Positions 1 through 63,418 of a DNA stretch of 64,000 nucleotides are shown here, piece after piece. Numbering within the stretch: the first letter of the stretch is position 1; every line of letters starts with the position of its first letter. The translations under genes were made by a program, and so were the position numbers. The stretch lies in the NCBI GenBank assembly GCA_000004985.1, contig GG738886.1. The stretch is one strand, 5' to 3'. This DNA is from Naegleria gruberi (Eukaryota). The notes under the pieces were generated by a model. That model was not told the origin of the DNA. It saw only the letters and a program-made list of their open reading frames with translations, and made no database searches.

Positions 1-1012
1 TATGTTTATTCAATGATTCCTTTTGATAGTCATCATAGAAGTCCATTACTTTACAAGCCTTGTGAGCAAAATAAACAAGTCCAAGTCTGGTTCCTGAAGT
101 AATAGGAGCAACTTGATGTTTATATTTGTTGCCTTTGAACAATAGCAAATCACCAGGTTTAACAAATACCTTACAATTTTGCTCTGGAAACTCCAAATAC
201 CCTTCTTTCTCATCATAATCTCCCAAGTAAAATAAAACACTAGGTGTAGCATCACGGGTGTCCTTGTGAGCATTCTTGATTCTATGTTTCTCTATCTGTG
301 GTTCTAAATAGTTAAAAGCAGTGGATGGATAAATACAATTATTCAAAATATGATATGGGTGTGGTAACGATGTCAAATAATTAATTGTTCTTGGAGAGAG
401 TATTTCCAATGCAGCAGTAATTGTTTCATCTAGCATTGGATTTACAATTCCAATTAAATATTCTCCCAACTGTGTCTTTAGATCTGATGTAATATAATTC
501 ATAGGCATGTTATTCTCCAAAACTCCACTGTATCCATGATTTTTCTTTCTTGCCTCTTGGATTTTTAATAAATTTTCATTAAATTCCTGAATAATATCCT
601 TTTTCAACACTCCCGGTAAGAAAGCAAGATCTATTTGACCATCTTTCGAAATAATAAAATGTGGACTTGTTATTTTAGTAAACCACTTTTCCGTGTTAAA
701 TATTAAATTACTATTACTATAATCAACATTAAATTTCCGTTTTAATTTCTTTAATAATCCTTTAAGTCTGGTTTTTTTATAAAGACCACCCTTTTCACCT
801 TTTTTCACAGTCAATGATTCCTGCAAATTCACCGACACGGGTCCTAAGGAATGCGTATCAGTTAAAAGGCTAGTAGATGGCTTTTGTCTTTTGTTATCAT
901 TTTTGTTGTTGTTATTGTTGTTCCTTCTTTTCGTTATTGTTGTTATTGATGTTGTTGTTCTTGATGTTTGTTGATGACATTTTTTATTGTTATTTCTTGT
1001 TGACCGTTCTTG
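1..1012 (-). CDS. TET/JBP-family 2OG-Fe(II) dioxygenase (NgTet1-like), 3' end beyond window, no in-frame ATG
   Basis: Uninterrupted minus-strand frame from 1012 down to 1. The translation ...TDTHSLGPVSVN...TEKWFTKITSPHFIISKDGQIDLAFLPGVL...HGYSGVLENNMPMNYITSDL...SPRTINYL...LNNCIYPSTAFNYL...AHKDTRDATPSVLFYLG...EGYLEF..NCKVFVKPGDLLLFKGNKYKHQVAPITSGTRLGLVYFAHK closely matches, from memory, Naegleria gruberi Tet1 (HxD...H...R..LVYFAHK catalytic signature). The ORF track missed it because the frame lacks a start codon. Confidence 0.85.
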
Positions 1013-3812
1013 TCAACGCAGCAAACGCTGCTGTTGTTCTTCTGACTTCAGACACAGCTTTCAATTTTCCTCTTGTTCTTTGCTGTTCTTCATCTACATG
1101 TTCAGCAGCAGTCTTGTTAGTTGGGATGGTGTTTACCTTGTTTGTGGAAATGTGGTATTCTTCTAAATCTGCTGGTACAACAACAGTTCCTTGACAACAT
1201 TGGTGTGGTTGGAAAAGTCTTGTATCTGCTTCTCTCTCGCATAGCTGTTGAAGAATAACTTCATCATTATTCAATTTTACAGTATAATCTTCCTTCAATT
1301 CTTCCAATCTCTTTTTCGTTAACGACCGTGGATGTGGTAAAAGGAAGGTGTTTGGTAGTATTGTTGTTAACAAGAGTATTCTAAGTTTTCGTAGTATCAC
1401 TTGAGCAAGTAATTTCCCCTCCAATCCTAATGAAATGATGGTTCTCTCTTCAACAGGCTGAATACTAAAAACCTTCTTCAATAAATCTTTGTTTTCATCA
1501 ATACCAAAATCCATTCCACTTGGAAGAACAACACCATTGGAACTAAACATTTGTGAATAATCTTTGGTGTTCGAAAATAAGGAATCATGGTAGGTGTGAA
1601 GATGACCACCACCTTTGCTAGAGCCGAAGTTAATCGTGTCCAATTCTTCAATATGACTACTCTCGAAAGCCTGTGTTTCGAAGAGTTTAACATGACCAAC
1701 TCGTTCTTTCAATGGGATGATATGTTTCACCAAAATGTGTGCATACCATGACTTTCCAGGAAATCCTTGTACAGTAGTGATATATAATTTCCAGAATTTT
1801 GAAAGAGAATCGGAAAGAACATCCATTGGCTTATCATAATCAATGTTGTGAAATACCTGTTTCAAACTATGCCATAAATCCTTTGTTTTCTCAGATTCAA
1901 AGAATGGAGCCATTACATTAATGTTTTCTAAAAGAGTATTACAAGTATTGCCATGCAAAAATATTCTCACTTCGTTCCAATCCTCATCCTCCACCTTATT
2001 AATATATTCTAAACCCTTAATTTTTGTAACGGCAGTCCAAAATTTCTCCTTTTCTTTCATTCCACTCAAAGTAATTCTTAGTATATTTTCGCATAATCTT
2101 TCCTTTGCATGAAGTACACAAATAATAATATTACTCGCTGGTAATCCCAATATACATCCAAGCTCTGTTAGTGTTCGTGGTCTGTGATGTTTGGTGCAAA
2201 TTGGGAATGTGATATTACAAAATGGACACCAACTATCCTGTTTAACTCCAGGACAAACTTCACCGAGAGCTTTCAAGTCCATCGTAAGGAAAACATCTAC
2301 ACTGCAATGATACGATCCAATAGTAATACCATTCTTTCTTATAATCTCAATCTCCTTTTTAAAATGCTCAGCTACATGTTTGATTTCTCCTTCATCTCCC
2401 TTCCAAATGGCCAGTGGTGCACATACAGCTCTGGACTGACCGGTTCCAAAACATTTACTGTTAATAACAGTAATATATATCGTTGTCAATTTAGAATTTG
2501 CTGCATAATCCAAATTCAATGCAACAATTAAATCTTTTGTTTCCTTTTTGTCTTGTTCACATAAAGGCCGTCCCTTATCTTTCATCCAACCAATCCACTT
2601 CTTATGTTGCAGAGCGTAACAACATAGTGTTGGGAAAATTGAATGGTATATTAATTTACCCTCTCCTTCTAATGTCAACACTTTCAAATTGAAAAAGTCT
2701 GAACAAAGCAAATCAGTTGATGACTGAGCATGTTGAAGAATACTTGATGAAGAGAGATCATTAACATTTCCTTCATTTCTAAACATGTCAACTGTTTTGT
2801 TGGAAACCTGTTGTCTATTCTTCACCACCACTTGCTTAAGGATTGTTGTATTAATTGTTGAGCTATATGTAGGTTTTCTTTTCTTCTTTTTGGGTGTTTC
2901 TTTTCCAGATTGTTGTACCTTTTCTATTTTTCTTTTTTGAGATTCTTCCCATTGTTTTCCCTTGATTTTTGAAATTTCTACTCTCTCATTCTCAAACACC
3001 TTGTCAGTGGAAGTGGTTTTTTTGGTTTGATGGGATGTTTCTTGTTTCGAAATAAATCCCTCTTCATGTAATCTCTTTTTATCCAATAGATCATTCCTTA
3101 GAAGGATTCCAAGAAATGAATAAATGTTAGTAAACCCCTCCATCTTTGCTAATAAATCATGACCACCTAATCTCATCAATAATCTTTCACCTTTTTTGTT
3201 TTTGGAAGTTATTTTCGAATAATCACTTTTCTTGTACTTGAATGAATTTGTTAAAATGTTGTCCTTCATCATGGTCAACCCAAAATGGTCCTTAATATCC
3301 ATATAATACCTCAAACCATCTGGTTCCATGTATGTCTTATCGCTGGTAGATCCTTTTCCAATGATGTTTTCAATTGGTTTGGAATTTTTAGAATAATATT
3401 GATTTATTATTCTTGTGTTCCATTGGTCAACCATATTTGGAGAGACAATATTTTCTTGGCCTGAATTTGAGGTAGATGATATTGGAATGGTTTGAGATGG
3501 AGGAGGGTAAGAAAACATTGTTTGTGCAACAGTATGTGAAGTAGTTGATGGTTGTGAGTGGAATGAATTTTGATGAAACATGGGCGGAAATTGTGTTGAG
3601 TATGGAAAGATTGTTTGGGGAGGAAATGTTGGCGTATTGTAGTTAAAATAGGGATTGTGAAAGGGATTTATAAATGATTGGTCTTGTGATGGTTGTGGCT
3701 GTGATTCGATAATTGGTGTTTGTGACGAATATGTTGTGCTAATGTTATCCAGGTCCAATACAGAAGTCCAACCACTCTCCGATTGACAATCATCATGATG
3801 GCAATATGTCAT
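990..3812 (-). CDS. 940-aa protein with RAG1/Transib-like RNase-H/zinc signature (candidate transposase-derived), low-complexity N-terminus
   Basis: ATG at 3812, TAA at 990-992. The segment ...LIVALNLDYAANS...CFGTGQS...SYHCSVDVFLTMDLKALGEVCPGVKQDSWCPFCNITFPICTKHH resembles the RAG1 region around D708 (FRGTGYDEKLVREVEG...CTLCD; zinc ligands C727/C730): acidic residues on predicted strands, a D.K...EV motif, and C..C 17-20 residues after the Asp followed by HH. The family assignment is an inference. Confidence 0.5.
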   Translation of the reverse strand: MTYCHHDDCQSESGWTSVLDLDNISTTYSSQTPIIESQPQPSQDQSFINPFHNPYFNYNTPTFPPQTIFPYSTQFPPMFHQNSFHSQPSTTSHTVAQTMFSYPPPSQTIPISSTSNSGQENIVSPNMVDQWNTRIINQYYSKNSKPIENIIGKGSTSDKTYMEPDGLRYYMDIKDHFGLTMMKDNILTNSFKYKKSDYSKITSKNKKGERLLMRLGGHDLLAKMEGFTNIYSFLGILLRNDLLDKKRLHEEGFISKQETSHQTKKTTSTDKVFENERVEISKIKGKQWEESQKRKIEKVQQSGKETPKKKKRKPTYSSTINTTILKQVVVKNRQQVSNKTVDMFRNEGNVNDLSSSSILQHAQSSTDLLCSDFFNLKVLTLEGEGKLIYHSIFPTLCCYALQHKKWIGWMKDKGRPLCEQDKKETKDLIVALNLDYAANSKLTTIYITVINSKCFGTGQSRAVCAPLAIWKGDEGEIKHVAEHFKKEIEIIRKNGITIGSYHCSVDVFLTMDLKALGEVCPGVKQDSWCPFCNITFPICTKHHRPRTLTELGCILGLPASNIIICVLHAKERLCENILRITLSGMKEKEKFWTAVTKIKGLEYINKVEDEDWNEVRIFLHGNTCNTLLENINVMAPFFESEKTKDLWHSLKQVFHNIDYDKPMDVLSDSLSKFWKLYITTVQGFPGKSWYAHILVKHIIPLKERVGHVKLFETQAFESSHIEELDTINFGSSKGGGHLHTYHDSLFSNTKDYSQMFSSNGVVLPSGMDFGIDENKDLLKKVFSIQPVEERTIISLGLEGKLLAQVILRKLRILLLTTILPNTFLLPHPRSLTKKRLEELKEDYTVKLNNDEVILQQLCEREADTRLFQPHQCCQGTVVVPADLEEYHISTNKVNTIPTNKTAAEHVDEEQQRTRGKLKAVSEVRRTTAAFAALTRTVNKK

Positions 3813-3880
3813 TATGATATTTCTTTTTGAAATATTTGAAAAAACCGTTACAGAAATAATTTAATTAAATGTAAATTTTA

Positions 3881-4567
3881 TTAGAAGAAATGGAATTCAT
3901 CTTCATCATCGTACTTTATCTTCGTATCATAAGCAAAATGCATCGTGACTTCACCAGATTCAGTATCAAAAATAAAGGAAATGTTCTTCACTTGTAAAAG
4001 ATATTGGGTAACAATGTAGTTGTCCTCTATCTGGGTGGCACTAGTAATGACTTGTTGACCCCAGTTATCAAATATATCCAATACAGGAAGATGAGATGTA
4101 AATCTATATCCAATACAAGGAACCTTATACTTAATGCCATGTCTTGTAACTGTTCTATCAGAGTGGAAAAAGGTAGCACCTAACATGCTTTGAAACATGA
4201 CTTGAAATACACCAAGTTCAACAGAGCCACATCCAACGTAACTTCTTTTATCAATACCTCCCAACTTCAGCAATCTATTGATTTTCACTCGAGCACAATT
4301 AGCCAATACTTGGAATGATCTGGCAGCAAAATCTTTCTCACTTTCGCATAAATCGTCATATGTGGTGGAAAGAGGTTGGATTCTTGGTAACCCGTGTTCC
4401 ATGATGATGTCTTTGAAGTCATATGAAGAAGTTTCCTCCTTTCGTTGTTGTTGGATTTGGAGGTCTACATGGTTGTTTGTTGGTGAAGTAATTGGCACAT
4501 CAAACATATCGATATCACCTTCATCCAAGATGGTCTCAGTGATATATACTTGTTGTTGTGTATTCAT
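3881..4567 (-). CDS. hypothetical protein (228 aa)
   Basis: ATG-initiated intact ORF with a compact intergenic fit. It contains VGCGSVELGVFQVMF, which weakly recalls the hG[GS]...h[DE]h[DE]h nucleotidyltransferase motif with the acidic residues replaced. Confidence 0.5.
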   Translation of the reverse strand: MNTQQQVYITETILDEGDIDMFDVPITSPTNNHVDLQIQQQRKEETSSYDFKDIIMEHGLPRIQPLSTTYDDLCESEKDFAARSFQVLANCARVKINRLLKLGGIDKRSYVGCGSVELGVFQVMFQSMLGATFFHSDRTVTRHGIKYKVPCIGYRFTSHLPVLDIFDNWGQQVITSATQIEDNYIVTQYLLQVKNISFIFDTESGEVTMHFAYDTKIKYDDEDEFHFF

Positions 4568-5083
4568 TGTGTTTGTTGGTTTTTTTGTTGTTGTTGTTGG
4601 TAGGAGAGAGTGATAGGGTCGTTCATTTTATAGTCTTTTTTTTTGTAAGAAAAATCATCATTTTCTACCAGGCTTAGCTTGGCCAGGGCATTTTTAGCTT
4701 TGATGTAAATTTCTAGTGATTCATAATTTTGAACATTGAAAAGAGTTTATTATGTTGATAATTGCTCTGAATCCACTTACCTCTGAGGTGACATCTTACA
4801 TTGGAGCAAATTCTGCTGCGCTAGTTGAAAGAAGATGGAAGAAGCAGTTGCTACTGAAATAATGGAAAGAAATATTATTAAGGAATTGTTAATAATAGAT
4901 GAGGTTAACATCAACCATTCGAATACATAACATGAATTGCAAATAGAAGACAAATGGCTTCTAGGAGCACATAGAGAGAGCACTCCATAACATTTTAGGT
5001 TTTGAAAATTAAAGTTCAACATTGTTCGATTCTAATTAAAAAGTTGCAAACAATTTTACCTTTCAAATTATTCATAAAAAAAA

Positions 5084-5994
5084 ATGGGCAATAAACAATC
5101 TAACCATCATCATCACCAACAACAACAACAGTCTTCTTCCACGAGCACCTTCACACCAACAACTATTCCGGTTTCTAATGAAGAGGCCTACAGAAGAGAA
5201 ATGGAAATTTGTAGACAATACGAAATTGAAAGTAAGATGAGAGAAATGCATGAAGCCAAGTTTCATCAATATTCGGAAAATAAGGAGCCAGCATTGCAAA
5301 ATCTTCAATTGGTATTAATAATTGATCACTCTGGATCAATGGGTTCTTTTGGTAGGTTTTTTTTGTGAAATAATTTTTATTCTAATTGGAAACTGAACAA
5401 GATGAGGATGCAACAGGTCAAAATCGTTCCAAGGGCTTGGTTGATTCTAATCATTGGACACGTTATGATAATGTTATTCAAGCAGCTAAATATCTTTCTG
5501 AAAGTATATTTCAATATGATAAGGATGGAAAGGTACCACTTATTTTCTTTGATTCAAATGTTAGAGAAGTGATTGTTGACAGTATTCCAAGATTAGTTGC
5601 TGCATTTGAAAAAAATCAACCAAATTCAAGTACCAATTTATTAGGAGCTCTTGAATTAGCATTTAAAAATCATGTTAATGATCATGAAAATGTATTATTT
5701 ATTGTTTTCACAGATGGTAGTCCTAACGGAGGTCAAGAACCAAAAATCAAACAATTAATTCAAGACAAGTTGACCAAACCAGATCCTAATGGAAACAGAT
5801 TGAATATTTTATTTATTCGTCATGGTGATGATATCTCTGCAATTAATTTTTTGAAACATTTGGATGATTGTGAGGCAATTGGAAATAATGTTGACACCAA
5901 GTCAGATAATGCTATTTATGCTCTTGGACCAAAGAATTTAATTCTCAATTCTATATTTGAACATATGGATGCTGAATTTTTACAATATGTTTAA
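5084..5994 (+). CDS. N-myristoylation-motif vWA (copine-like, MIDAS DxSxS) protein, 2 exons
   Basis: The N-terminus MGNKQS is a myristoylation consensus. Exon 1 (5084..5351) ends ...LVLIIDHSGSMGSFG at a GTAGGT donor. A 50-nt intron (5352..5401) ends ..caag. Exon 2 (5402..5994) continues in frame as a vWA fold (TRYDNV...IVFTDGSPNGG). Confidence 0.7.
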
Positions 5995-8714: not shown

Positions 8715-9338
8715 CTATGTTGAAATATTTCCAATATTATGTGCGAGCTTGTCACCATCCTTTAGTGATGCTTCTTCATAACTTTCGAATGAGACCTCAG
8801 GAGACATGTAATGATATTTTCCAACTGTCAAAGTTATGGAATTTCCACTTTTGACAACTTTTGCAATATCAAAATCAATAATTTTGTAATGATCTTTCAC
8901 CTTAACTATATTCTTTGGATCTAAATCTCTATGCAACACATTTTTATCTTCAAGTGATTTCACAGAAAACAATATTTTTGTATATAAATTCATTTTGATA
9001 AACATTCATATTTCTATCAATAATCTTGTACTGTCTCTTCTCCCATTTCCATAATTGAGTACATAACCATCTATGAGATTACAGTCATAACATTTGATTT
9101 TACCTTCAATATCATCTCTTTTAAGAAATTTAATTCTCTCCTGCGCAGAAATTTCATCTATTTTGTCAAATTTAACTTTAAATGCAACAAATTCATTCAA
9201 TATCTTACTGAAAGCTTTGAATGCAACCCCTTCTCCTCCGTGTCCCAGAAATAATTTCATATTGATTGTTAAAATACTTGTTGGAATAGTTTTGAAATTC
9301 TTTGAATATTTGAATGACTTTGGCAAGATCACCTCCAA
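8715..9338 (-). pseudogene. protein kinase-like gene interrupted by in-frame TGA with degenerate catalytic motifs
   Basis: Glycine loop LGHGGEGVAFKA and VAFK lysine sit in 9006..9338. HRDLDPKN (catalytic Lys replaced by Asp), DFD and SPE sit in 8715..9005. The two ORFs are in the same frame separated only by TGA, and no GT..AG intron is placeable around it. Confidence 0.5.
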
Positions 9339-9556
9339 TTTTGTTTCTACAAGAACTTGCTTACGGTTTTTCTACATTTTGATTTTTTAATCCAACAAGA
9401 AATAAACAATAACACTAACCCAATCCATTTGTATTGATGCCATTTTTTTGATGTTTTTAATCTAGTCTAAGAAAGGCGATTGGTTGACCATTCCTGTAAT
9501 TAACTTAATCAGATGTTTTACAATAAACTATTGACTTTGAACAAAGAGATTATTAT

Positions 9557-11635
9557 TTATTCATCATCCTCAATATCTTCGATTTCTTCTTCTGTTTCTG
9601 TTGTCTTTTCAAGAGTTATCTTTTTCTTCTTTGGTTCAATATCACAACCAATAGATTTCAGTACAATTGAAACTTGATCGTATTTGATATGTCTAGAAAT
9701 TGTAATATTTCCCTTAAAACCAATGACAACAATGTTGTCATGAGAATCTTCATCTTCGTCTTTAATCTTAACTAAAACACCACCTGGTTCCATTTGTGAA
9801 ATTTTTTCAGCTTCTTCCTTTTGACCATTTTCTTCGAAAATCTTTGGTGAAACTTGAGGTTCAACTAAGAATTTGATAAAGTTTTCACGATTCAATTCAA
9901 TTTTTCTGTGTGAGTTAGTATTATCCCAGAGTAATGTTGCAGCTTCTTGTGTCATTCTATAACGACATCTCAAAAATTGAGCCTTATTTCTAGCAAAAAC
10001 TCTAATACCACAGTTGATAATGTTAAATTGTTGGCCATCATTCATGTTATGTTCAACAAATTTACGAACGGATGGAGAAATATACATAACTTTTCTGACA
10101 CTGTCAAGTTCTGTGGCACTGTCAGTAGTTCTAAGACAAAATTGTTCATTCTTGAAGTTATCTCTATTAACACCATAAAAATCAAGAATTTTTTCAAGTT
10201 TTTCTGGTTCCATAGATTGAATAGTATCCTTTTGAATACCTCTTCCCTTGAATTGTTTGATTGTTTCTTCAGTATTTTCATTATATTCAGAAATTGGTTC
10301 ATCCAAATCGGCAACCTTCTTAAAGTGAGCAATATAGAAACCACCAGTATTATTTTGATTTGGTAAAATTCTCATAGTGTAATGCATATTCATATCCTTA
10401 ACATCATCTTTAGCAAATTCACTTTCAGTAATTCTGTTATCAGAGTTATATTTACGGGCATATTCGAAAGATGGTAATAATTCTCCTTTCTTTGAAGTAA
10501 CAACCCAATTTGTCATACCTGGCTTGTACTTTAATGATGGGTATCTAGAAGATAAATCTTGTAAAACAAGCTTTCCCTTTGTTCTTCTAATAATTTCAGC
10601 AACTACAGCTTCATCTTCAATAGGATTTAATGTACATGTACTATATACAATTTCACCTCCAACATTTAACATATCAAAAGCTCTCAAAACACAATCAACT
10701 TGTAATTTGTGAAGACCATGACCCATATTTGCCTTCCATTGTCTCCAAACTTGTGGTGATTTTCTGATGGTACCATCTCCACTACACATGATATCACAGA
10801 GAACCTTATCAAATTTGAGTTTTGGTTCAGTAGTAAATTGTGGATACTTTGTAGCATCATGATTTGTAATCATCAAATGTGGGAATAAAAAGTTCAATCT
10901 TTGAAGTTGGTGAACTAATAAATAAGCTCTTTTAACATCATTATCATTGGCAATAACAAATCCCGAAATGTTCTTTGAATCTCCTCCACTACTTTGATAG
11001 AGTAATTCCACAAGTTGTGATGTTTTAGAACCTGGAGCAGCACACATATCAAGAACCTTATCAGATGGTTTCCAATTTGTAAACATCAATGGTGGTAACA
11101 TACTGACAACTTCTTGTCTACAGAAATTACCCTTTTCAGTTTCTCTCATTAAAAAATTTCTAAATTCAGAAAATTCTGGCTGTTTTCTTAATAAATTCTT
11201 TGTAACATGGTCATGCATTTGCCACACAAGATCATCAGGAATAAATGGAACAGGTTTTAAAGAGGCATATTCTGGTTCTGTTTCAACCTTTGATGGTTCA
11301 TGAAGATATTGAGAAACTGCACTGTCATCAATTCTGATTTTAGAAATAGCTTCAGCAAAATTCCTAATCTTTTGTTTTAATTTTTCTTGACTAGATTTTG
11401 GAATTGATTGATTAATTCTGAAAGAAATTGGTAAAGTTTTTCTAAAAGCATCCACCATATCCTTTAATTCCTCTTGTGAGTCAACAACTCTTTGTTGATC
11501 GAAATAATATTGTTCAAAAATTTTGTTTGTTTTTAAATCACCCTTTCTGGTCTTTTCCGGAACCCAAACATTCTTTGATTCTGTTGTTGTTGAAGATGAT
11601 GATGTTTCAGTAGTGGTAGTCGGTTGTTGGCTCAT
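9557..11635 (-). CDS. NSUN2: tRNA (cytosine-5)-methyltransferase, NOL1/NOP2/Sun family (NSUN2/Trm4-like)
   Basis: Contains DMCAAPGSKT (SAM-binding motif), DKVLCDIMCSGDGTIRK (motif IV Cys) and IVYSTCTLNPIEDEAVV (motif VI Cys), 692 aa. Confidence 0.85.
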   Translation of the reverse strand: MSQQPTTTTETSSSSTTTESKNVWVPEKTRKGDLKTNKIFEQYYFDQQRVVDSQEELKDMVDAFRKTLPISFRINQSIPKSSQEKLKQKIRNFAEAISKIRIDDSAVSQYLHEPSKVETEPEYASLKPVPFIPDDLVWQMHDHVTKNLLRKQPEFSEFRNFLMRETEKGNFCRQEVVSMLPPLMFTNWKPSDKVLDMCAAPGSKTSQLVELLYQSSGGDSKNISGFVIANDNDVKRAYLLVHQLQRLNFLFPHLMITNHDATKYPQFTTEPKLKFDKVLCDIMCSGDGTIRKSPQVWRQWKANMGHGLHKLQVDCVLRAFDMLNVGGEIVYSTCTLNPIEDEAVVAEIIRRTKGKLVLQDLSSRYPSLKYKPGMTNWVVTSKKGELLPSFEYARKYNSDNRITESEFAKDDVKDMNMHYTMRILPNQNNTGGFYIAHFKKVADLDEPISEYNENTEETIKQFKGRGIQKDTIQSMEPEKLEKILDFYGVNRDNFKNEQFCLRTTDSATELDSVRKVMYISPSVRKFVEHNMNDGQQFNIINCGIRVFARNKAQFLRCRYRMTQEAATLLWDNTNSHRKIELNRENFIKFLVEPQVSPKIFEENGQKEEAEKISQMEPGGVLVKIKDEDEDSHDNIVVIGFKGNITISRHIKYDQVSIVLKSIGCDIEPKKKKITLEKTTETEEEIEDIEDDE

Positions 11636-11759
11636 TTTTTTTCTTCAAGTATCATTTTGAAATTGCACCATCTTCATCACACCTCTTCGGAACGAATAAT
11701 AACAATAATAAATAAATAAAATTCATCATCAAATAATAATCATGATGAAGAATTTAAAA

Positions 11760-12110
11760 AGAGAATGCCATGCAACCCTCGCCAGTAGTCTGAATTGTGT
11801 TACAGCCCAGTGAGCTGTGTTGTACATCTAACTAAACTTTTGCGGTGTCATCCCAGCCGTTTCAATTGAGAGTTTCCTCCCAAGCCCATTTCTGGTTCTG
11901 GGATATTAGCATTATTGATTTACCAACCTCACTTCTCGTGAGTAAACAACACCTCAGACCTTCCCAGGAGTTATGGTTAATGTGAGTGTTCTTACTTGTT
12001 TAAAGTAATCTCGTATGTATTCTCCTCAATACGTCCAAGCTCAAGATGCAAGCAGACCCCGAAGATTAAATGTAATTTGCATCCTTGTGAAAGATTGGAT
12101 ATTTTTTAGG
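11760..12110. other. GC-elevated ORF-free island (candidate ncRNA gene or regulatory element)
   Basis: About 45% GC against roughly 30% around it, with no ORF in any frame. It contains gctcaagatgcaagcagacc, which matches 17 of 20 positions with a motif in the 21850-22500 island. Confidence 0.25.
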
Positions 12111-12188
12111 AGGTAAGATTTATGGTTTCAAAAAAGAGTTTTCTATATTTTACATAATTCAATTTCACTCAACTATTATTCAAGTTAA

Positions 12189-13101
12189 TTACCAGACATT
12201 CTCACCAGATAGATCGAGTGTGATTGGCTTGTCAAAAACTTCGAGGAAATCTGATAATTGGAAACAATGTTCACATTCGTTTGATATTTCTTTAAGGAGA
12301 GATTCTCTTGGAATAATCTGAGGAAAATCTTGATTAAGACTGTCAAGGAAAAGTGACATTTGTCTGATACCAAGACCCATTACCTTCTTACCAAGAGTCA
12401 CTAATTGTGTGACCATTTCCTGTATTTTAAAAATCCAAATTAATCCTGCTTTTTCTTCTTCCTTTGAGAGTGGATTTCCATTTGTAAAATCATCGTCATC
12501 GGTTTCAGCTGGATGGCCTGTTGGTATATCTCTACAGGTCCATCTAGGGAAACTCAGTGAACCTGAATCATCAGTGTACAGTAATATTTTGACAGATAAT
12601 ATTTTGTAATCAAATTCCTTCAAAAATTCATCATCCTTCTTTGCTCTGTGTAGAACCCTCAGAAAATCCAAGGTGCAATCCTTTGTTCCTTCCAAGAAAT
12701 GTACATAATATTCCTGTCCTTCAAATAATATTCCGTAAAAATCGTCTTCCTTACGTCCAGTTTTATGAAATAAAGCCATATGATATTCTATCATTAATTA
12801 ATCATCCCTATTATCCAGGTTCCCAAAACTTACGTTCGGTAAGACTTCCATTTGTTGTATCTTCTTGATGTTTCTTTGCTACATACAACAATCTGGAATG
12901 TGTCTTTTGGTCCTGTAAATTATTGTGTCTTGCCATAATAACATCCAACAATGAGGATCTTGCTGTTTGAGCAACCTCACTCATCGTTTCCTTTTGGTTG
13001 GCACTTGTTGAAATATTATTTGCGTTGTTTTTTGTTGGCACTGGAGTGGCCTTTCCTATCGATGGGCTTATATTGATGAGACTACTGTTATTGCTGTTCA
13101 T
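12189..13101 (-). CDS. hypothetical protein, 2 exons (about 288 aa)
   Basis: Exon 1 (13101..12834) ends at a GTAAGT donor. A 46-nt intron (12788..12833) ends ..gatag. Exon 2 (12787..12189) continues in frame. Confidence 0.55.
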
Positions 13102-13703
13102 TTCCAGAAAGTGTGGGTGATAAAGTGGTCTCTTTTTTTTTAAAGTTTTATTTGAATTTGTTTTCTGTAGTAAAATTGGGCGGGAATTGTCTAAACTTCA
13201 ATATTAAATACAATAGTCAATAGGAAAGAAAAATTCTTATTGGAAAGTATTAACCAAATAACAGTCCATAGATTAGAGGATGTCATCTCATTATTTGGAC
13301 TTTTCATTTGTTAAGGCAAGAAAACCGTTAAATTGGCAAGTAAAATTCCCAATATTTAACAGTCAACTCAATATTATTATGAATTTACCTTGTTGTGTGC
13401 ATTAGAAATAAAGAATATTCCTTTTTTGTATTTTTGATGGGATGTCGGATTTTTAATAGTGTTGAATTGCCGTTTTTCTGATGATGAATTCAGCCTTTGA
13501 GTATTTTGTAAACGAGCTGTCAATGGTCAATCAGATTTTATTAATAATTTATTGGGAAGCAACCAATAGAATTGATGAAAGTTGGACGTTACAATGGTTT
13601 CATCTTGTCAGACAGCGCGTCAACAATTTTTTTGTTGACTGACAGTATAAATAGTTGAGAAGAAAAACTCAACACAAACATTCTCAAAAAAAACAATCCA
13701 ACA

Positions 13704-14669
13704 ATGAAGATTCTCTTCTCTCTTTTGCTTGTCCTTGTACTTGCCTCACTTGTCAGCTGCCAAACTTACCTCCCATATAATAATGCCACAACATTCTCCT
13801 CCTTCACCAAATATTTTGTTAAAGTTAATGGTGGTTTCAAGGCAGGAATTACATACACTCAAAAATCAAGTAGTATTTGCTTCATGTATGTCTACCACAG
13901 TAGTACTTCATTGAGTACTTCTAATGAATGTTATACAGCAACAATCAATTCTAATACTACAAGATATTTTGAATTGATACCTTTTACTGATGTTTCCAGT
14001 GATACTTTTACTATTTCATATAGTGGATTGGGTATTTGTGAAGGAACTATCAAGATTACTCAATTAAGTCAAGCAGCAGGTGATGTTTCATCAAAGAAAG
14101 CTGTCATTCCATTCGGTTATGCTTTTGAACAAAATTATGATATCATCTTGTATCGTTCAAGTGCATTCGCAATTCCTGCTGGTTACAAAGCTGTTGGTAC
14201 AATTTATGGAATGAGTGGATCATGTGATCTCAAATTCAGTCATTCTGATACAAACTTTTTAACTTTGGGAATGACCAAGGGACAAACTCAATCATTTGAA
14301 CTTATTCCACCAGAAAAGGCAACTTCAACTTCCACTATTTCAATTTCAGCCTCAAGTATTTCCGTTATTTGCCAAGTTCAATATAGTGTTGAACTGAAAA
14401 GTAGAACAGCAACTGATAAGGCCAATGTTGGCGAAGATTCCTCAACATCAGGTTCAGCAAATACAGGTGCTATTGTAGGTGCTGTCTTGGGTACATTGTT
14501 TGGATTGTGTTGTATCGTAACCATTGTTATTATTGCCATAGTTGCATGTATATTTGGTACAGCATGTTGTGCTGCTGGTGTTGCTGGAGGTGCAGCTGCT
14601 GCAGGAGGAGCTGCAGTGGTTGCTACAACAGCCAATCAAAATAATAAGGCTGAAGCTCAATATGTTTAG
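13704..14669 (+). CDS. type-I membrane surface protein (signal peptide, Cys-rich stalk, C-terminal TM)
   Basis: MKILFSLLLVLVLASLVSC looks like a signal peptide. A hydrophobic, Gly/Ala/Cys-rich transmembrane stretch lies near the C-terminus. Confidence 0.6.
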   Translation: MKILFSLLLVLVLASLVSCQTYLPYNNATTFSSFTKYFVKVNGGFKAGITYTQKSSSICFMYVYHSSTSLSTSNECYTATINSNTTRYFELIPFTDVSSDTFTISYSGLGICEGTIKITQLSQAAGDVSSKKAVIPFGYAFEQNYDIILYRSSAFAIPAGYKAVGTIYGMSGSCDLKFSHSDTNFLTLGMTKGQTQSFELIPPEKATSTSTISISASSISVICQVQYSVELKSRTATDKANVGEDSSTSGSANTGAIVGAVLGTLFGLCCIVTIVIIAIVACIFGTACCAAGVAGGAAAAGGAAVVATTANQNNKAEAQYV

Positions 14670-14696
14670 TTTGTTCCAATAAAAAAATTATGAATT

Positions 14697-16864
14697 TTAG
14701 TTCACGTTATTTTTGAATGCCAAATAGGATTTGATGATTAATTTTCCTGGAGAGGTTGATAATCTTTCCAGTAATGTTAGTGTGGTAGCTGTTCCATTGT
14801 GTGGTCTTGGCATGTTGGTGTTTGCTTGTTTGAATTGAGAGTTTAGTAAATTGGTCAGGAATGGTGAAATGGCTGAAATACTATCAGTTTCGAATCTGAT
14901 ATGCCATGAAAATTTGGAAAGTCTTTCATTGAAATCTTTCAAATCAATCAAATTACCATTATCATGTGCCATTTCAGCAAAAGTATCCATAAAAAACTTG
15001 CACAATATTTCGTATTTTTCTAAAATAGTCAAAAGGCCAGTTGAGTGGACTGAGTTTTCAAATGTTTGTTTGATTCTTTCCATGCATTCATGATCGTTGT
15101 GGCATGTCTTGACTAATTCAAAAATATTACTTTCTTGATCGTTGGATTGTTTCTCATTCTCCTTCAGATATAAAATGGAGGAATATTGAGGAGAAGGAAC
15201 TCGAACAAAACCATTTCCATCGTAAACTAAACACTCTTTCACTTTGAAAGGATTACATGTATTAACGTAGGCTTTCACTTCACTAATATTTGAGAATATC
15301 AATGGACTATACTTGGAAAATACAGGACTGTATCTGGTTCTCTCAATAAATATATCTAAATGAGAAAGTTTAGACTTTTCCACATTAAACGATGTTAAAA
15401 GTAAAAACTCCATATTCTCATCCTTTGATATTTCAAATGTTAAGCTTCCAGATTTGTCAAGATTAATATTCTTCTCTGTAATAAATCCAATAACAAGCTC
15501 TTCGATTGATCTATTGAAGATAATTTCAGATCCATTAGATGTAGTTTGAGAGCATACTTTCATTTCTCTATTTACAATATCATAATATACACTAGCAATA
15601 ATGCTATTATCATAAATTTCACAACATTTTGCTTTTTTCCAATTCATATTCTTGTAGGATTGGGCATGACTGTAGGGTAAAATTCTGAGAGGTGGCTTGC
15701 AAAGTATTTCATATGGGGAATCTAAATTTTTTCTGTACAAAACTAAACCATAAAATACTTCTTGAACAAGTGAAGAGTAAGTTGGTGATTCATCAACAGC
15801 TCTCAAATAAATATATTCATTTTCTTCTGTAGTATTCCAAAGGGTATTTTCAATAGAGAAAAATAATCTTAAATTTTCCAATAAAGTCTTGGAATTTGAA
15901 ATATTATTGGCATAGGCCAGAATACTGGATTTGTATAATTTAGTTTCCTCTTCAGTTACTAGATTATCTTTCTTTGTAATTTCATTGAAAACATCTTTCA
16001 ATTCTTGATATTTTGGATAATATTCCTTTTCAAAAAATTTCCAAGATGATTCCTTATGAAAAGATTGCATTATTAAATAGTAAGTGTTGTTAGCAGCTCC
16101 ATAATCTACAATTTTCAAATTAGATGCTATCTGAATACCAAAAATTAAATCTCTAAAGGTATGGGCAATATATTTCCGTTCCTGATAATTTGGAATCTCA
16201 TTTTCATTTTCTAATCGACCCCACTTTCTTCTCGCCATTTGAAAATGTTTACCAGCTTCGCCGACAACAGATAAAATCAATTTTCTGAAATAAATCTTGG
16301 TGTCAGTATGAAGATTTGGAAAATCGCATCTCCACACAAATTGTTCAGGTAAAAAGATGCACATTAAAGATTGCAACCAATTATCATTCAACTTGTTTTG
16401 GAAAACTGAATACTTGTACAAATTAATGTTCAATTCTATATCAGTTCCTTCTACTGAAATATATAAACATTGATATCCTTCAATAAATCCATCAAAAAGT
16501 GATTCAACTTTTGTTTCAATTAATTCCTTCCTTCCAGATTGATACCATTGAGTAGACAAACAATCATCTCTTTCAACTCTATAATATTCATCCATTTCTT
16601 CGTAGAGTTCATTAGAGACGATAATGAAAAAATCATAATCAGCATTTGGCTTTGCAGTTCCATACACTCTTGAGCCTAATAATTAATTCAATCATCATCA
16701 AACTAAAATTTCAGAATTTAATTACCTGTCTGATAAACATTCATCTGAGTTTTACTTTTAAATTTATCCAATTTCATACACTCAAGAATTGTATTAATAT
16801 TACATGAGACTAATGATTCCGAAGATTGACTCGCTGATGATGAGTTCGCTTGATGTTGAGACAT
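14697..16864 (-). CDS. hypothetical protein, 2 exons (about 702 aa)
   Basis: Exon 1 (16864..16726, ATG; MSQHQANSSSASQ...NVYQTG) ends at ACAG|GTAATT. A 50-nt intron (16676..16725) ends ..attag. Exon 2 (16675..14697) continues in frame with the 656-aa ORF. Confidence 0.6.
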
Positions 16865-16964
16865 TTTTTTAGAGTGCATTTTAAAATTACATAAAGTTCA
16901 CAGTTTCAAGTTTACTTGGTTCAATAATTATTATTGAATTATTGAAATTTGCATTGTTGGGTTA

Positions 16965-18132
16965 TTAACATATAATACATGAATCCTTTTCCTTTGTTGG
17001 TGGAACTGTTTGTTCTTTTGGATAATTTGGAGAGTCAAGATTGTGTTTAGCAACCAAATATTTCTCCCACTGAATGGTGAGGAGATTCTTGTAAATGTCA
17101 GTGGATGGTTCCTCTGTAACAATTCTAAACTCTTGAGGTCCATTCATGATAATTTCTCTGTTTGCACCACTCCAACTGAATAGACACTATTTTGATTAGA
17201 GAAAGAATAAAAGATTCATTACTTACAGGGCCAGCTCCATTGTGAAATGGATTAATTTCAATAATTGTTACACCCTTAGTTGGTGAAACAAAGAAATCAA
17301 CGACGAATGAAGGATGGGGAATTCTCTCAATGCAAAACCCATTGAAGAACTCATTAATTTTCTTTAAAATTTCTTCTTTTTGAGCAATTAAATCATCAAA
17401 CTTGAAATCACAAAAGTATTGAGAAATGGCGTTCAATTTCTTTTCGTGTACGAAACATCTAAATTCAAATTGAGGCAATTCAATCATTTCTTCGTTCCAC
17501 TCTCTTAAAATTATCTTACTTTCGTACAATTTCTCACCAAATCCAGTGTTCTTTTGCAAATCCTCATAAATTCTCTGTGATCTTCCCAATAATTCCATTG
17601 CAGATTTTCCACTATTAATTTTCATCGACTTGTTCATTGCTTTAAGGAAAGCAACACAAATATTATTTGGTGTCCTGTCAGAAACTCTTTCCACTTCCTT
17701 ATTTAATTGATTTTGATAACTTTCATCATTATGACACTTCCATGGTACATCTTTTGGACTTCTTGTATTCAATTTAACAAAAGCTCCATCATTAAACTCT
17801 GTATGAGCTGCCAAACATTCATCAATTCTTTTTTCAACATTTTCCAATAAAACAACTTCTTCACTAGTTAAACTTGTTGTTTTTTCATAGGTTTTTGCAT
17901 TCACTTTAAACAAGGATATTAAAGCCAAGGCTTCTTGATAGGATAAATCAACACTTCTAGTTTTGAAGGTAAAAGGTTCCAGCTCTGCAGTACACCATGA
18001 TTCAATTCCGAAACAATTTTGATAATGCTTTCTTCTGTATTGTTCAATTTGATGATCGGCAACTCCTAATTCTCTGATTTGATCATCAGATAGTAAAAAA
18101 GGGCTGGAATAGAAAGAAGGTTGTTGTGACAT
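16965..18132 (-). CDS. CDC123: Cdc123 (D123) family ATP-grasp protein, 2 exons
   Basis: Contains FVKLNTRSPKD, EFRCFV and VTIIEINPFHNGAGP. A GTAAGTAAT donor follows GP (exon 1 18132..17227). A 40-nt intron (17187..17226) precedes exon 2 (17186..16965), which begins CLFSW and matches the human CDC123 LFTWEEL region. Confidence 0.75.
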
Positions 18133-18232
18133 TTTTTTGTTGGATAAAGTTCGTTTGAACTTGGTACTTTTACAAATTACAAGATAAGGTTATTGTATTA
18201 TATAATCATAGAAAAATCCAAAATGAACACCA

Positions 18233-18315
18233 GCCCGCGTAGCAGAGTGGTCAAATGCGTAAGACTTAAGATCTTATCCCGAATGGGTTCGTGGGTTCGA
18301 ACCCCACCGCTGGCA
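18233..18315 (+). tRNA. tRNA-Leu(UAA)-like, long variable arm, one C.U mismatch in acceptor stem
   Basis: GCCCGCG-T-AGCAGAGTGGTCAAATGCG-TAAGACTTAAGATCTTA-variable arm-GTGGGTTCGAACCCCAC-CGCTGGC-A followed by TTTCCTTTT. The architecture parallels eukaryotic tRNA-Leu. Confidence 0.6.
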
Positions 18316-18446
18316 TTTCCTTTTACCTTTGACAGAAAGAAATGGAACTTGAGACTTAATGTATCTTATATGATGTCTATTGACCAGAATTAATATTTTA
18401 AAGTTCCATTCTAACAATTTACAAATTAATTTCCAAAGATAAAAAA

Positions 18447-19595
18447 ATGGGTCAATCACAACCTCAGAAAATTGCACCACCACCACCTGTTTGCTCCTCA
18501 TCTACATCATCATCTTCAATGCCTTTCATTAATTCGGATCGTGTTGAACAACTTAAAAAATCATCTCTCATCAACAAGTTGGCAAATCCTAAAATGTTTC
18601 CAAACAAGATTTTTCATGATTTAATCGAATCAAAAAGTGATCTGAAGAGTGTTGAGAAATATGCAGTTTATAATTATGAAAATTGTTCAATTTTTGAAAA
18701 GGAATTGCCAGATGAATTATTTATTTGTATTTTGGGATTTTTAATGAATCATGAACTTTTCAAATTACAACGAGTTTCCAAAAATTTCAAATATTATTGG
18801 ACTCAAAATAGTTTTTTATGGAGAGGAAGATTGTTGGATGATTACAATAAGATTTTCATGTATTTTAAACCAATTATGCAATCACCAAACAATAGTATTG
18901 TATATTATCATCACTTTATACAAACAATTTTAAGTTCGTACAAAGAAAAATCAGATGTACCCAACTCTATGATTTGTAAACAAGTTTTAATGGGAATGGA
19001 TCAATGTGGTAAATCTGAACTAGCTAAATTATTTTCAGATTCAACAAGATTATTTGATTCAAAATATTCTCGAACCATTGGAGTTGAGTTTTATTCAAAA
19101 GGTTATGAGTATAATAATAATTTACATTGCAAAATTCAATTATGGGATACTGGTGGACATGCAAGGTTTCAATCAATTGCATCAGCCTATAAAAGAGGTT
19201 CCAAGACTATCATTTATTGCTTTGATTTGAGTGATGAAGAGTCTTTTGATCGAATGAAGGAACTTATTGACAATAATAGTGAAAAACCTCAAAATACTCC
19301 TTGGAATGATTATTTACAATGTGAAAGGTTAAGTATGATAATTATTGGATTGAAGAGAGATTTAGTAAGAAAGGTGAAAATGAGTCGAATTGAAAATCTC
19401 CTCCAACAGTTTGTACCCATTATTGATGGTATTTCATTGAAAGATTTGAAAGTTCAATATTTTGAGCTAAGTTGTAAAACTGATGCCAGATGTTACATTC
19501 AATTCCCTCTATTATTTGGATTATTGATGAGTGAGGAAGTAATGATTGAGGATGCATCTATTGACAAGAAGGTAATGGCGGAAATAAAAACTTGA
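18447..19595 (+). CDS. F-box + Rab-like small GTPase (catalytic Gln to His)
   Basis: F-box LPDELFICILGFLMNHELFKLQRVSKNF. P-loop GMDQCGKSEL, switch I YSRTIGVEF, WDTGGHARF in place of WDTAGQE, and GLKRD in place of NKxD. Confidence 0.65.
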   Translation: MGQSQPQKIAPPPPVCSSSTSSSSMPFINSDRVEQLKKSSLINKLANPKMFPNKIFHDLIESKSDLKSVEKYAVYNYENCSIFEKELPDELFICILGFLMNHELFKLQRVSKNFKYYWTQNSFLWRGRLLDDYNKIFMYFKPIMQSPNNSIVYYHHFIQTILSSYKEKSDVPNSMICKQVLMGMDQCGKSELAKLFSDSTRLFDSKYSRTIGVEFYSKGYEYNNNLHCKIQLWDTGGHARFQSIASAYKRGSKTIIYCFDLSDEESFDRMKELIDNNSEKPQNTPWNDYLQCERLSMIIIGLKRDLVRKVKMSRIENLLQQFVPIIDGISLKDLKVQYFELSCKTDARCYIQFPLLFGLLMSEEVMIEDASIDKKVMAEIKT

Positions 19596-19604
19596 TGAGC
19601 ACCA

Positions 19605-19687
19605 GCCCGCGTAGCAGAGTGGTCAAATGCGTAAGACTTAAGATCTTATCCCGAATGGGTTCGTGGGTTCGAACCCCACCGCTGGCA
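19605..19687 (+). tRNA. second identical copy of tRNA-Leu(UAA)-like gene
   Basis: Identical 83-nt sequence plus about 8 nt upstream and about 37 nt downstream flank shared with the copy at 18233. Confidence 0.6.
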
Positions 19688-19796
19688 TTTCCTTTTTCTT
19701 TGCCAGAAAGAAATGGAACTTGATCGAATATATTGCTAAATAATTGCTTTTATATTCAATTTTTGAAATGCAAGTGTGAAAATCCATTCCAAAAAA

Positions 19797-22500: not shown

Positions 22501-22585
22501 TAGTTATTGCTCCGAAAGAGATTTGTTTCAATATAAAATTTCATCAGCACTGAGTACGAGCTTAAACTTAATCTCAAACATTTTG

Positions 22586-22979
22586 TTTTATTTACAATTT
22601 ACTGAATTATTTACAAGTTGTAATTTACATCTTTTTCGATTTGGTAATCTTCTTAGCTGTGGTGGTTGATTGTATTGAATTTTTCAAAGATCTTTTCACC
22701 GAAATTTGTTTACCATTTAAATTAGCATGATGATAATCAATATTATTACGATGTCTAGTTCCACTCATAATATTTGAAGTATCAATATCAAATAATGATA
22801 ATTTTAGATAAATCAATTGGTTTAGATCTTGTCCTTTCTGTTTTTATTGGAATTCTATCTTTGGATGATGAAGAATTTGATGAAGTATTTCTAGCTGACA
22901 TTTTGCTCTTAGTTTTTGTTATTTAGTTATTTTGTTTTGTTGTGTAAATTTCATCATCGATACCAGTTATCTATTTCCA
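22586..22979 (-). repeat. dispersed repeat copy 1 (inverted B segment 22586..22897 + A segment 22898..22979) with frameshifted small basic ORF
   Basis: The minus strand is about 90% identical to 61569..61905. A 2-nt deletion splits the ORF into MSARNTSSNSSSSKDRIPIKTERTRSKPIDLSKIIII* and ...LFDIDTSNIMSGTRHRNNIDYHHANLNGKQISVKRSLKNS...KKITKSKKM*. Confidence 0.7.
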
Positions 22980-49805: not shown

Positions 49806-49878
49806 TGCCGACACCAGGGATCGAACCAGGGACCTTAAGATCTTCAGTCTTACGCTCTCCCAACTGAGCTATGTCGGC
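49806..49878 (-). tRNA. tRNA-Phe(GAA)
   Basis: The reverse complement GCCGACATAGCTCAGTTGGGAGAGCGTAAGACTGAAGATCTTAAGGTCCCTGGTTCGATCCCTGGTGTCGGCA gives a perfect cloverleaf with anticodon GAA and a downstream T-run. Confidence 0.9.
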
Positions 49879-61015: not shown

Positions 61016-61133
61016 GGCTACGGCCATATCACGATGAATGCACCTCATCCCGTCCGATTTGAGAAGTTAAGCATCGTCGAGCCACATCAGTACTGAGGTT
61101 GGAGACAACTTGGGAACCTGTGGTGCTGTAGTC
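61016..61133 (+). rRNA. 5S rRNA
   Basis: GGCTACGGCCATATCACGATGAATGCACCTCATCCCGTCCGATTTGAGAAGTTAAGCATCGTCGAGCCACATCAGTACTGAGGTTGGAGACAACTTGGGAACCTGTGGTGCTGTAGTC plus TTTT; the termini pair as helix I. Confidence 0.9.
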
Positions 61134-61289
61134 TTTTAATCTTAGATAAATCAACAGGATTCAAATTGTGCGTATTGAGCTTGAGAGGTTATAAATAACA
61201 TTATGAACTATTGTAAATATTGTGTGAATGATTTAGGTTTTATTTACAATGATTTGCCTAGGTTTACAACATTTTGAGTTAAATGGAGA

Positions 61290-61505: not shown

Positions 61506-61905
61506 TTTCTTATTGTTATTTTGTTTTGTTGGGGAAATTTCATCATCCGATCAACAGTTATTTATTTCCAGCTAGAAATGCTTCATCAAATTCTTCAAAT
61601 TCTTCCGAAGATAGAATTCCAACTAAAACACAATGGACAAGATCTAAACCAATTGATTTATCTAAAAGATTACCATTATTTGATATTGATACTTCTAATA
61701 TTATAAGTGGAACTAGACATCGTAATAATATTGATTATCATCATGCAAATTTAAATGGTAAACAAATTTCAGTGAAAAGATCTTCGAAAAATTCAATTGA
61801 AAAGAGAGCTAAACAACAATCGAACACCACAACTAAGAAGATTACCAAATCGAAAAAGATGTAAATTACAACTTGTAAATAATTCAGTAAATTGTAAATA
61901 AAATA
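61502..61905 (+). repeat. dispersed repeat copy 2 (A 61502..61570 + B 61569..61905) with intact small basic ORF frame (no in-frame ATG)
   Basis: About 90% identical to the inverted copy at 22586..22979, with near-identical sequence through the stop codon and 45 nt beyond. A ends ttatttatttccag, which is acceptor-like. Confidence 0.7.
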
Positions 61906-62255
61906 ATTTGTTTTGAAATAGATGAAGTTTCAATTTAGAATTGATCAGAATATGAGAAACCAAAATTTGGATCAAGCAATTCACATGTCTAATGTTCAAT
62001 AAATTTGAGGTTGATCAACCTTTTCAATTTCTTCAACAACCTGTTATTTGAACACAACAAGATTCGTCCAGAACTCTTGCCTTCACTGTTCATACAGTCA
62101 AAGACTGTAGCGGGATAGTCGCCATATTCCTGGCAGGCTTCCCGTCTAAATTAACAATTGAAAGACAAACAACAAAATCTTATTTACTTGAACTCTTTAA
62201 CTTATTCCTTCATTTTTTCAATTTATTTATTATTCATTGTATTAAGGCAATAAAT

Positions 62256-63300: not shown

Positions 63301-63418
63301 GGCTACGGCCATATCACGATGAATGCACCTCATCCCGTCCGATTTGAGAAGTTAAGCATCGTAGAGCCACATCAGTACTGAGGTTGGAGACAACTTGGGA
63401 ACCTGTGGTGCTGTAGTC
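63301..63418 (+). rRNA. 5S rRNA (second copy)
   Basis: Identical to 61016..61133 except one substitution (cgtAgagcc), followed by a T-run. Confidence 0.9.

Follow-up and report, generated by a model that had tools for sequence, protein, structure and literature searches.

Our analysis concerns the left edge of a 64,000-nucleotide stretch of the Naegleria gruberi genome (contig GG738886.1 of assembly GCA_000004985.1; the whole stretch is called the window below), where a minus-strand reading frame had been proposed, from the letters alone, to encode an NgTet1-like Tet/JBP dioxygenase acting on 5-methylcytosine (5mC). Positions 2-883 of the minus strand very probably form the body of an NgTet1-type DNA dioxygenase gene, an N. 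gruberi paralog of NgTet1, and this gene stands next to a conserved two-gene module that includes a predicted transposase-like gene. When the translated frame was searched with phmmer against all chain sequences of the Protein Data Bank (PDB), NgTet1 was found twice at the top (4LT5_A, E=1.2e-96; 5CG8_A, E=1.2e-90) and the third-best match was noise (E=0.95). Residues 44-337 of the frame are colinear with chain residues 27-323 of 4LT5, that is NgTet1 21-317, with one gap of three residues, and BLASTP gives 50.8% identity across 297 amino acids. The proposed identity is borne out by these matches, and the lack of any NgTet match, which the original prediction had named as the outcome that would speak against it, is the opposite of the strong colinear match found. 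The NgTet1 sequence used for comparison was taken from the PDB alignment for residues 21-317; residues 1-20, which lie outside that alignment, served for the N-terminal comparison only.

The alignment also allowed us to ask which functional residues are kept, and all 11 of the NgTet1 functional residues that were mapped are identical in the window Tet (Table 1). The His-x-Asp...His triad, which had been suggested for mapping onto the NgTet1 structure, falls on H229, D231 and H279; the 2014 NgTet1 structure paper reportedly identified these as the Fe(II) ligands and R289 as the arginine that binds 2-oxoglutarate. The homology predicts that Fe(II) is bound through this triad and 2-oxoglutarate through the conserved arginine. 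Additionally, NgTet1 uses R224 and F295 as a base-stacking pair and N147, H297 and D234 as readers of the cytosine edge, and it requires a pocket of A212, V293 and F295 for oxidation past 5-hydroxymethylcytosine (5hmC) (PMC4678852). The aspartate at D234 sets the preference for 5mC over thymine, and mammalian TETs have an asparagine there (PMC4678852); the window Tet has aspartate, the same as NgTet1. If these residues act as they do in NgTet1, 5mC would be flipped from the duplex into a cage of the F295 and R224 equivalents, its cytosine edge would be read by the equivalents of N147, H297 and D234, and it would be oxidised in steps to 5hmC, 5-formylcytosine (5fC) and 5-carboxylcytosine (5caC). 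We infer this activity and this substrate from the sequence.

One result on the other side comes from the Pfam search that had been suggested as a check. No Pfam-A family matched the Tet frame at E<=0.1, and in a relaxed scan the top family was Tet_JBP (PF12851) at 12.2 bits (E=0.11), well short of the cut-off of 34.9. The positive control NgTet1 falls below the threshold as well, with 11.9 bits, and so does the metagenomic homolog P0002, with 15.9 bits. The Pfam model thus fails to detect this clade, and the low score carries no information against membership. Whether the single sequence or a profile was used as query, homolog searches yielded just two metagenomic proteins, P0001 and P0002, from a database that apparently lacks the N. 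gruberi Tets, and a Tet scan of metagenome contigs gave no match. P0001 is the closest metagenomic relative of the Tet; in its contig (L007, about 895-969) the homology is lost after the residues ITS and before the 2-oxoglutarate-binding arginine and the last histidine, and P0001 overlaps a gene on the opposite strand. It is either a truncated copy or the product of a chimeric contig.

The placement of the gene in N. gruberi relies on its neighbors. Six open reading frames (ORFs) of the window are exact matches to proteins of N. gruberi NEG-M, all on one scaffold of 358,576 bp, and they include XP_002674108.1, XP_002674034.1, XP_002674035.1, XP_002674037.1 and XP_002674041.1. From these exact matches it follows that the Tet is an NgTet1 paralog within N. 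gruberi itself, which agrees with the heterolobosean Tet family to which the locus had been assigned. Accession order suggests that the three minus-strand genes to the left of XP_002674108 are XP_002674105 to XP_002674107. In keeping with this, the Tet locus is probably XP_002674105.1, reportedly listed among NgTet1-8 in the 2014 structure paper; no mention of NgTet2/4/6 or XP_002674105 came up in a literature text search. The Tet gene is already known in kind, because N. gruberi Tet paralogs have been published, and NgTet1 is in use as a structural model and as a sequencing reagent. The Tet domain by itself then adds little, and its surroundings could matter more.

The reading frame is well delimited on the upstream side. 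It is open for 337 codons (2-1012) and runs off the window start, while a TGA at 1013-1015 on the same strand closes it and makes 1012 its exact upstream limit. The homology proper begins at 883 (K44, codon 883-881). The extent of 1-1012 given by the original prediction is accurate. The motifs that it had quoted, NAHKD, GNKYKHQV and GTRLGLVYFAHK, are all found in the translation. Of all trinucleotides in this window of 33% GC, 6.3% are stops, and from this frequency the chance probability of a 337-codon open stretch is about 2.6e-10. Stop-to-stop segments of at least 337 codons number 21 among the 8,126 in the window, and the other two minus-strand frames of the Tet region contain many stops. 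Judged from NgTet1 and P0002, at least about four C-terminal codons and the stop codon fall past the window start. The frame had been missed in the ORF list, which was attributed to the lack of a start codon. This is only half of the answer: the frame does lack an ATG ahead of residue 169, but an ORF that leaves the window end would also suffice to explain the omission.

The missing start codon needs a closer look, as it weighs against reading the locus as a working gene. The methionine at residue 169 sits inside the conserved motif NSMP(M/F)NY, and the full enzyme may not be expressed because no in-frame ATG comes before it. A complete gene from ATG to stop is not present in the window, with no start found and the stop lying past its edge. 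This defect concerns the function of this copy and not its family membership. Homology to NgTet1, P0001 and P0002 starts at K44. What precedes K44 is an A/C-rich leader of low complexity with two out-of-frame ATGs, which open ORFs of 22 codons (ATG 980) and 12 codons (ATG 900).

One explanation is that the initiation codon was lost recently and the locus is a pseudogene or null allele that makes no full-length enzyme. We consider this possible but rather doubtful. The loss could have come about by a change of ATG to ATA at 946-944 or by a frameshift of one nucleotide downstream of ATG 900 or ATG 980. The first route is suggested by the sequence ATA-ACA-ACA, which lies in frame 21 residues before K44, roughly where NgTet1 and P0001 carry a Met-Thr-Thr start (20 residues before the lysine equivalent to K44). 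As to the others, ATG 900 is out of frame by one nucleotide and stands beside two A4 runs, and between ATG 980 and residue 44 there is no GT dinucleotide except inside that ATG. A frame-correcting intron in this interval is excluded because it would have no usable GT; the intron available for comparison in the window has the 5' site G/GTAGGT (the slash marks the splice junction) and is about 50 nucleotides long. Against a lost start stand the 294 homologous codons, which contain no stop and in which all the functional residues are preserved. The rest of the Tet is intact, and any inactivation must therefore be recent. The leader is also of low complexity, and alignments within it are ambiguous.

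The same observations fit an error of assembly or base calling, with the true start intact and a single wrong base or homopolymer length somewhere in 884-1012. One substitution or one-nucleotide indel would restore a protein of NgTet1 size, and the remainder of the gene is perfectly intact. Apart from a return of ATA to ATG, it is conceivable that a one-nucleotide change in the A4 runs just past ATG 900 would give a protein beginning MITK..KPSTS, and also conceivable that a one-nucleotide shift after the GAAAAGAAG tract, which is common to P0001, would join the ATG 980 ORF to the Tet frame. Because of its repeats, the tract gives no grounds for preferring one of these three single-event repairs. 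An assembly error is likewise an explanation that we hold with low confidence. Other ORFs of the window match deposited proteins exactly, which suggests a generally accurate assembly. As assembled, the locus may be an allele that lost its start very recently, a misassembly of a low-complexity A-rich tract, or a gene whose start cannot be modelled, and with high confidence we read it as encoding, or having encoded until very recently, an NgTet1-like enzyme. For anyone cloning this paralog the absent start codon is a practical concern.

A more unusual way to supply a start would be through the neighboring gene. The stop codon of p940 (992-990) lies 106 nucleotides upstream of K44, and the Tet frame overlaps the final seven p940 codons in the +1 frame. 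A +1 ribosomal frameshift at AAG-AAA-TAA-C (995-989) would therefore give a fusion product of about 1,270 amino acids, RAG1-like at one end and Tet at the other, and a Tet that has no start codon of its own would fit such an arrangement. We consider it very improbable. The homologous Tet genes elsewhere are separate, each with its own ATG; AT-rich DNA has many AAA-TAA sites; the open leader comprises just 43 codons of a stop-poor A/C-rich repeat; and we know of no evidence for +1 recoding of this kind in Naegleria. An intron joining p940 to the Tet, from GTAAAC at about 1132 to AAAAG/CCA at 883, was also considered. It was rejected on the grounds that the part of the C-terminal p940 tail past this donor site is conserved as coding sequence in the homologs at two metagenomic loci (L002 and L003, described below), and it is further disfavored because GTAAAC makes a weaker 5' splice site than does GTAGGT, the one used by the real intron in the window.

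The surroundings of the Tet consist of p228 and p940, two ORFs named for their lengths in amino acids, and the characterization of p940 had to rely on predicted structure. Pfam gave no match for p228 or p940 (for p940 at E<=0.1), and the single-sequence AlphaFold2 model of p228 was unusable, with a confidence score (pLDDT) of 37. For p940 a model was built from an alignment of 30 sequences, and its core (residues 270-870) has a pLDDT of about 90. A Foldseek search of this model against the PDB returned only RAG1 (E=3e-10 to 4e-8) and the Helicoverpa transposase HzTransib (E=1.5e-6) as significant matches, and the next fold was Hermes at E=2.6e-2. The residues D435, D512, C529xxC532, C565xxH568, H692x4H697 and E717 are invariant in the p940 family. 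D435, D512, C529xxC532, H692x4H697 and E717 do not vary among the close homologs and hardly vary across 20 relatives. The order D..D..C(2)C..H(3-4)H..E defines the EnSpm/Mirage/Chapaev/Transib (CMCT) transposases and RAG1 (PMC12730594). The invariant residues of p940 reproduce it, with catalytic roles assigned by motif order and not by superposition of residues. At the sequence level p940 has no match to Pfam RAG1, Transposase_21 or PDB sequences, and a p940-family profile likewise found none among PDB sequences. On the strength of the modelled fold and the motif, we call p940 a RAG1/Transib-fold, CMCT-like homolog of DDE transposases, which within CMCT may belong to Transib, EnSpm, Chapaev or another lineage.

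The pair is kept together elsewhere. Order and strand are the same at three other loci, namely N. lovaniensis L001 (p230 + p907; identity to the window 56% for the large and 67% for the small protein), a locus covered by two metagenome contigs that are 99.8% identical, L002/L004 (p241 + p985; 44% and 59%), and the metagenomic L003 (p229 + p980; 33% and 49%). Outside the pair, no synteny was detectable between the window and L001. Searched exhaustively with HMMER, p940 has 37 relatives, among them a divergent paralog in N. gruberi itself (on a scaffold of 7.6 kb), another paralog in N. lovaniensis, one protein of Willaertia magna, two proteins with fused Ulp1 proteases and one distant relative with a weak Transposase_21 (tnp2) match (E=0.008); a p940 scan of metagenome contigs gave no match. 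In W. magna the small partner is p213, which is matched by the p228-family profile at E=2.4e-5 and itself matches the 220-amino-acid ORF that lies upstream of a transposase-like gene at L006 of N. lovaniensis (E=1e-31). Upstream of p228 (4625-4665, minus strand) and of its L004 homolog (about 490-535) there is a common motif, AAATGATGATTTT..TTACAA.AAAAAAA..TATAAAATGA, although the identity between the two proteins is just 59%. Neither N. lovaniensis nor L003 has this motif, and the window shows no enrichment of the 13-mer by itself.

Looking for Tet-like genes beside this module at six distinct heterolobosean loci of the p228/p940 family, we found one at three of them. In the window the Tet lies in tandem with the module, 106 nucleotides downstream. 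At L002/L004 the gene for P0002, which is 48% identical to the window Tet, is convergent and about 1.3 kb away. In W. magna (L005, JBEGDK010000099.1) the stretch 9306-17077 holds p213, p904 and a two-exon Tet/JBP-like gene on one strand, with the last at 16029-17077, 3.3 kb downstream of the module. Exon 2 of that gene has an HxD...H...R arrangement and matches both NgTet1 (E=1.7e-5) and CcTet (E=1.6e-3). At the same locus p904 and the Tet-like gene have 82% identity over the 44 nucleotides that lead into their start codons, these included (9964-10007 against 15992-16035), and a 21-nucleotide motif, TTTCGTTTGTCAAATTGTAGT, occurs three times downstream of the two genes. Both the likeness and the repeat could be chance in very AT-rich DNA.

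We think it somewhat more probable than not that the linkage of Tet and module is non-random and functional. The adjacency occurs in two or three independent lineages, and by our own estimate, which was not computed, this is unlikely to happen by chance, because Tets are a handful among roughly 15,000 genes. A Tet that is cargo or partner of an element could counteract its silencing by 5mC, as has been proposed for the TET-carrying transposons of fungi; by removing 5mC from the element it would let the element escape silencing by methylation. A more specific reading, which we put forward only tentatively, is that of a bona fide Tet-carrying transposon, in which the Tet would be cargo or obligate partner of an undescribed heterolobosean family of two-ORF DNA transposons with a transposase of RAG1/Transib fold.

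Several observations weigh against such a linkage. Searches for Tet with tblastn and five Tet queries found none at L001, L003 and L006; N. lovaniensis L001, where the module is most similar to that of the window, lacks a Tet for 10 kb around, and at L003 the neighbor of the module is an LRR/F-box gene. The orientation of the Tet differs, being tandem in the window and convergent at L002/L004, and the window ends inside the Tet gene, with the far flank outside it. No convincing terminal inverted repeats (TIRs) or target site duplications (TSDs) were found in window 1-5400, L002-L004 or L005, where a single copy per locus was searched; CMCT transposons usually have TIRs of the form 5'-CA..TG-3' and TSDs of 2-5 bp. 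With no element ends found, mobility and the inclusion of the Tet in an element are hypothetical. A 22-nucleotide inverted pair of 95% identity in L004 was considered as a TIR and set aside, as it adjoins two zinc-ribbon genes in inverted orientation and probably arose when these were duplicated.

These observations would also fit an ordinary host Tet with an incidental neighbor, in which the module is a domesticated or dead transposase pair and the adjacency is inherited synteny or chance. This is a serious possibility, to which we give somewhat less than even weight. Besides the lack of TIRs and TSDs and the absence of a Tet beside the module in N. lovaniensis, L003 and L006, it is favored by p228, p940 and the Tet each occurring once within the 64-kb window, and by a module that is intact, with 33-56% identity across species, as in a domesticated gene. 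It has more difficulty with the recurrence of the adjacency in Willaertia, where the copy of the module is only about 23% identical, and in an uncultured relative with the other orientation; repeated adjacency is very unlikely by chance according to our rough estimate. The flanks of the module are non-syntenic between N. gruberi and N. lovaniensis, which also speaks against this explanation; this and the divergent module paralogs within single genomes count in favor of the linkage. A domesticated module whose Tet is functionally linked or merely syntenic is a live alternative to the tentative transposon. If the transposon reading is true, no Tet-carrying transposon would have been described outside fungi before, and Discoba would gain a lineage of RAG1-like transposases. 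Should NgTet-type genes in Naegleria and Willaertia travel with a RAG1/Transib-like transposase or stay beside it, the fungal alliance of transposon and Tet would be an older or a convergent strategy. A true linkage would additionally offer an explanation for the multi-copy Tet family of Naegleria, and the structural family of RAG1 and Transib would then reach into a protist lineage that branches deeply.

The window holds a number of other features. Two tRNA-Leu(TAA) genes (18233-18315 and 19605-19687) lie in a 107-nucleotide direct repeat (18223-19701) that brackets the Rab GTPase gene XP_002674035.1 (18447-19595); by accession order a Rab paralog at least 90% identical to it, XP_002674104.1, should sit just left of the window beside the Tet. 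Two plus-strand 5S rRNA genes (61016-61134 and 63301-63419), 2,285 bp apart, lie within a 162-nucleotide repeat, and between them is a 228-nucleotide tandem duplication of 77% identity (62616-63071). An inverted duplicate of about 330 nucleotides with 91-95% identity (22576-22868 and 61601-61913, 39 kb apart) appears to hold the start of a small ORF (ATGTCAGCTAGAAAT...) and is probably a duplicated small gene, not a miniature inverted-repeat transposable element. The two-exon gene at 5084-5994 on the plus strand has an intron of about 50 nucleotides (5' G/GTAGGT ... ACAAG/ 3') and a His/Gln-rich N-terminus; a DxSGS motif suggests a vWA-like domain, and exon 2 has no Pfam hit.

Table 1. Positions of the features discussed, with the remarks on Tet residues giving the role of the corresponding NgTet1 residue.
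Feature	Position	Strand	Remark
Probable Tet/JBP-type Fe(II)/2-oxoglutarate dioxygenase coding region	2..883	-	query residues 44-337, matching NgTet1 residues 21-317
Functional-residue span of Tet	62..514	-	mapped onto NgTet1 alignment
H297 equivalent	codon 62-64	-	reads cytosine edge
F295 equivalent	codon 68-70	-	stacks flipped base; also in pocket
V293 equivalent	codon 74-76	-	pocket for oxidation beyond 5hmC
R289 equivalent	codon 86-88	-	reported 2-oxoglutarate Arg
H279 equivalent	codon 116-118	-	reported Fe(II) ligand
D234 equivalent	codon 251-253	-	reads cytosine edge
D231 equivalent	codon 260-262	-	reported Fe(II) ligand
H229 equivalent	codon 266-268	-	reported Fe(II) ligand
R224 equivalent	codon 281-283	-	stacks flipped base with F295
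A212 equivalent	codon 317-319	-	pocket for oxidation beyond 5hmC
N147 equivalent	codon 512-514	-	reads cytosine edge
A/C-rich low-complexity leader	884..1012	-	129 nt, open in Tet frame, no in-frame ATG
Out-of-frame ATG	900-898	-	opens 12-codon ORF
In-frame ATA-ACA-ACA	946-938	-	21 residues before K44
Out-of-frame ATG	980-978	-	opens 22-codon ORF
p940, 940-aa ORF	990..3812	-	RAG1/Transib-fold DDE transposase-like core, from fold and motif residues
p940 E717	codon 1662-1664	-	motif residue
p940 H697 / H692	codons 1722-1724 / 1737-1739	-	motif residues
p940 C532 / C529	codons 2217-2219 / 2226-2228	-	motif residues
p940 D512	codon 2277-2279	-	motif residue
p940 D435	codon 2508-2510	-	motif residue
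p228, 228-aa ORF	3881..4567	-	always precedes p940-family gene, same strand
XP_002674108.1	9560-11635	-	exact protein match
Nuclear RNase P RNA	11778-12039	-	Rfam RF00009, 66.8 bits; between two protein-coding genes
XP_002674034.1	13704-14666	+	exact protein match
tRNA-Phe(GAA) gene	49806-49878	-	

Comparison with known systems can help to place both the Tet and its neighbors. TET-carrying DNA transposons of fungi belong to KDZ, Plavaka, ESTA, EnSpm and other groups, several of them in the CMCT clade, with ESTA having been recognized through its similarity to RAG1 (Kojima 2025, PMC12730594). No Tet-carrying transposon from outside fungi is mentioned in that paper (PMC12730594) or turned up in our literature text searches. 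As in these elements, a Tet/JBP gene here adjoins a gene for a DDE transposase-like protein and the arrangement recurs across lineages, and p940 resembles ESTA in its CMCT motif order and RAG1 similarity. The differences are a heterolobosean host, an NgTet1-type Tet, the extra conserved small ORF p228, ends that are not defined by TIRs or TSDs, and a Tet that is absent at half of the examined loci. For p940 the closest known systems are RAG1, Transib and ProtoRAG, but at the sequence level it matches neither Pfam RAG1 or Transposase_21 nor any PDB sequence, and no termini resembling recombination signal sequences or of the form CA..TG were found; its partner p228, at 228 amino acids, is not recognizably RAG2-like.

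The Tet itself shares with metazoan TET1-3 and kinetoplastid JBP1/2 the double-stranded beta-helix dioxygenase superfamily and the HxD...H chemistry, with Tet_JBP (PF12851) as its best, sub-threshold Pfam match. Unlike them it lacks a large insert as well as Cys-rich and CXXC domains, and it differs from mammalian TETs by the aspartate in place of asparagine at the D234 position (PMC4678852). With respect to NgTet1 (4LT5, 5CG8/5CG9) the window Tet is a paralog in which an Asn/Thr-rich tract replaces the lysine-rich N-terminal tail and no in-frame ATG is present. The two come from the same organism, belong to a class of about 300-320 amino acids, are colinear over NgTet1 residues 21-317 at about 51% identity, and have an identical Fe triad, 2-oxoglutarate arginine, set of 5mC contacts and A212/V293/F295 pocket.

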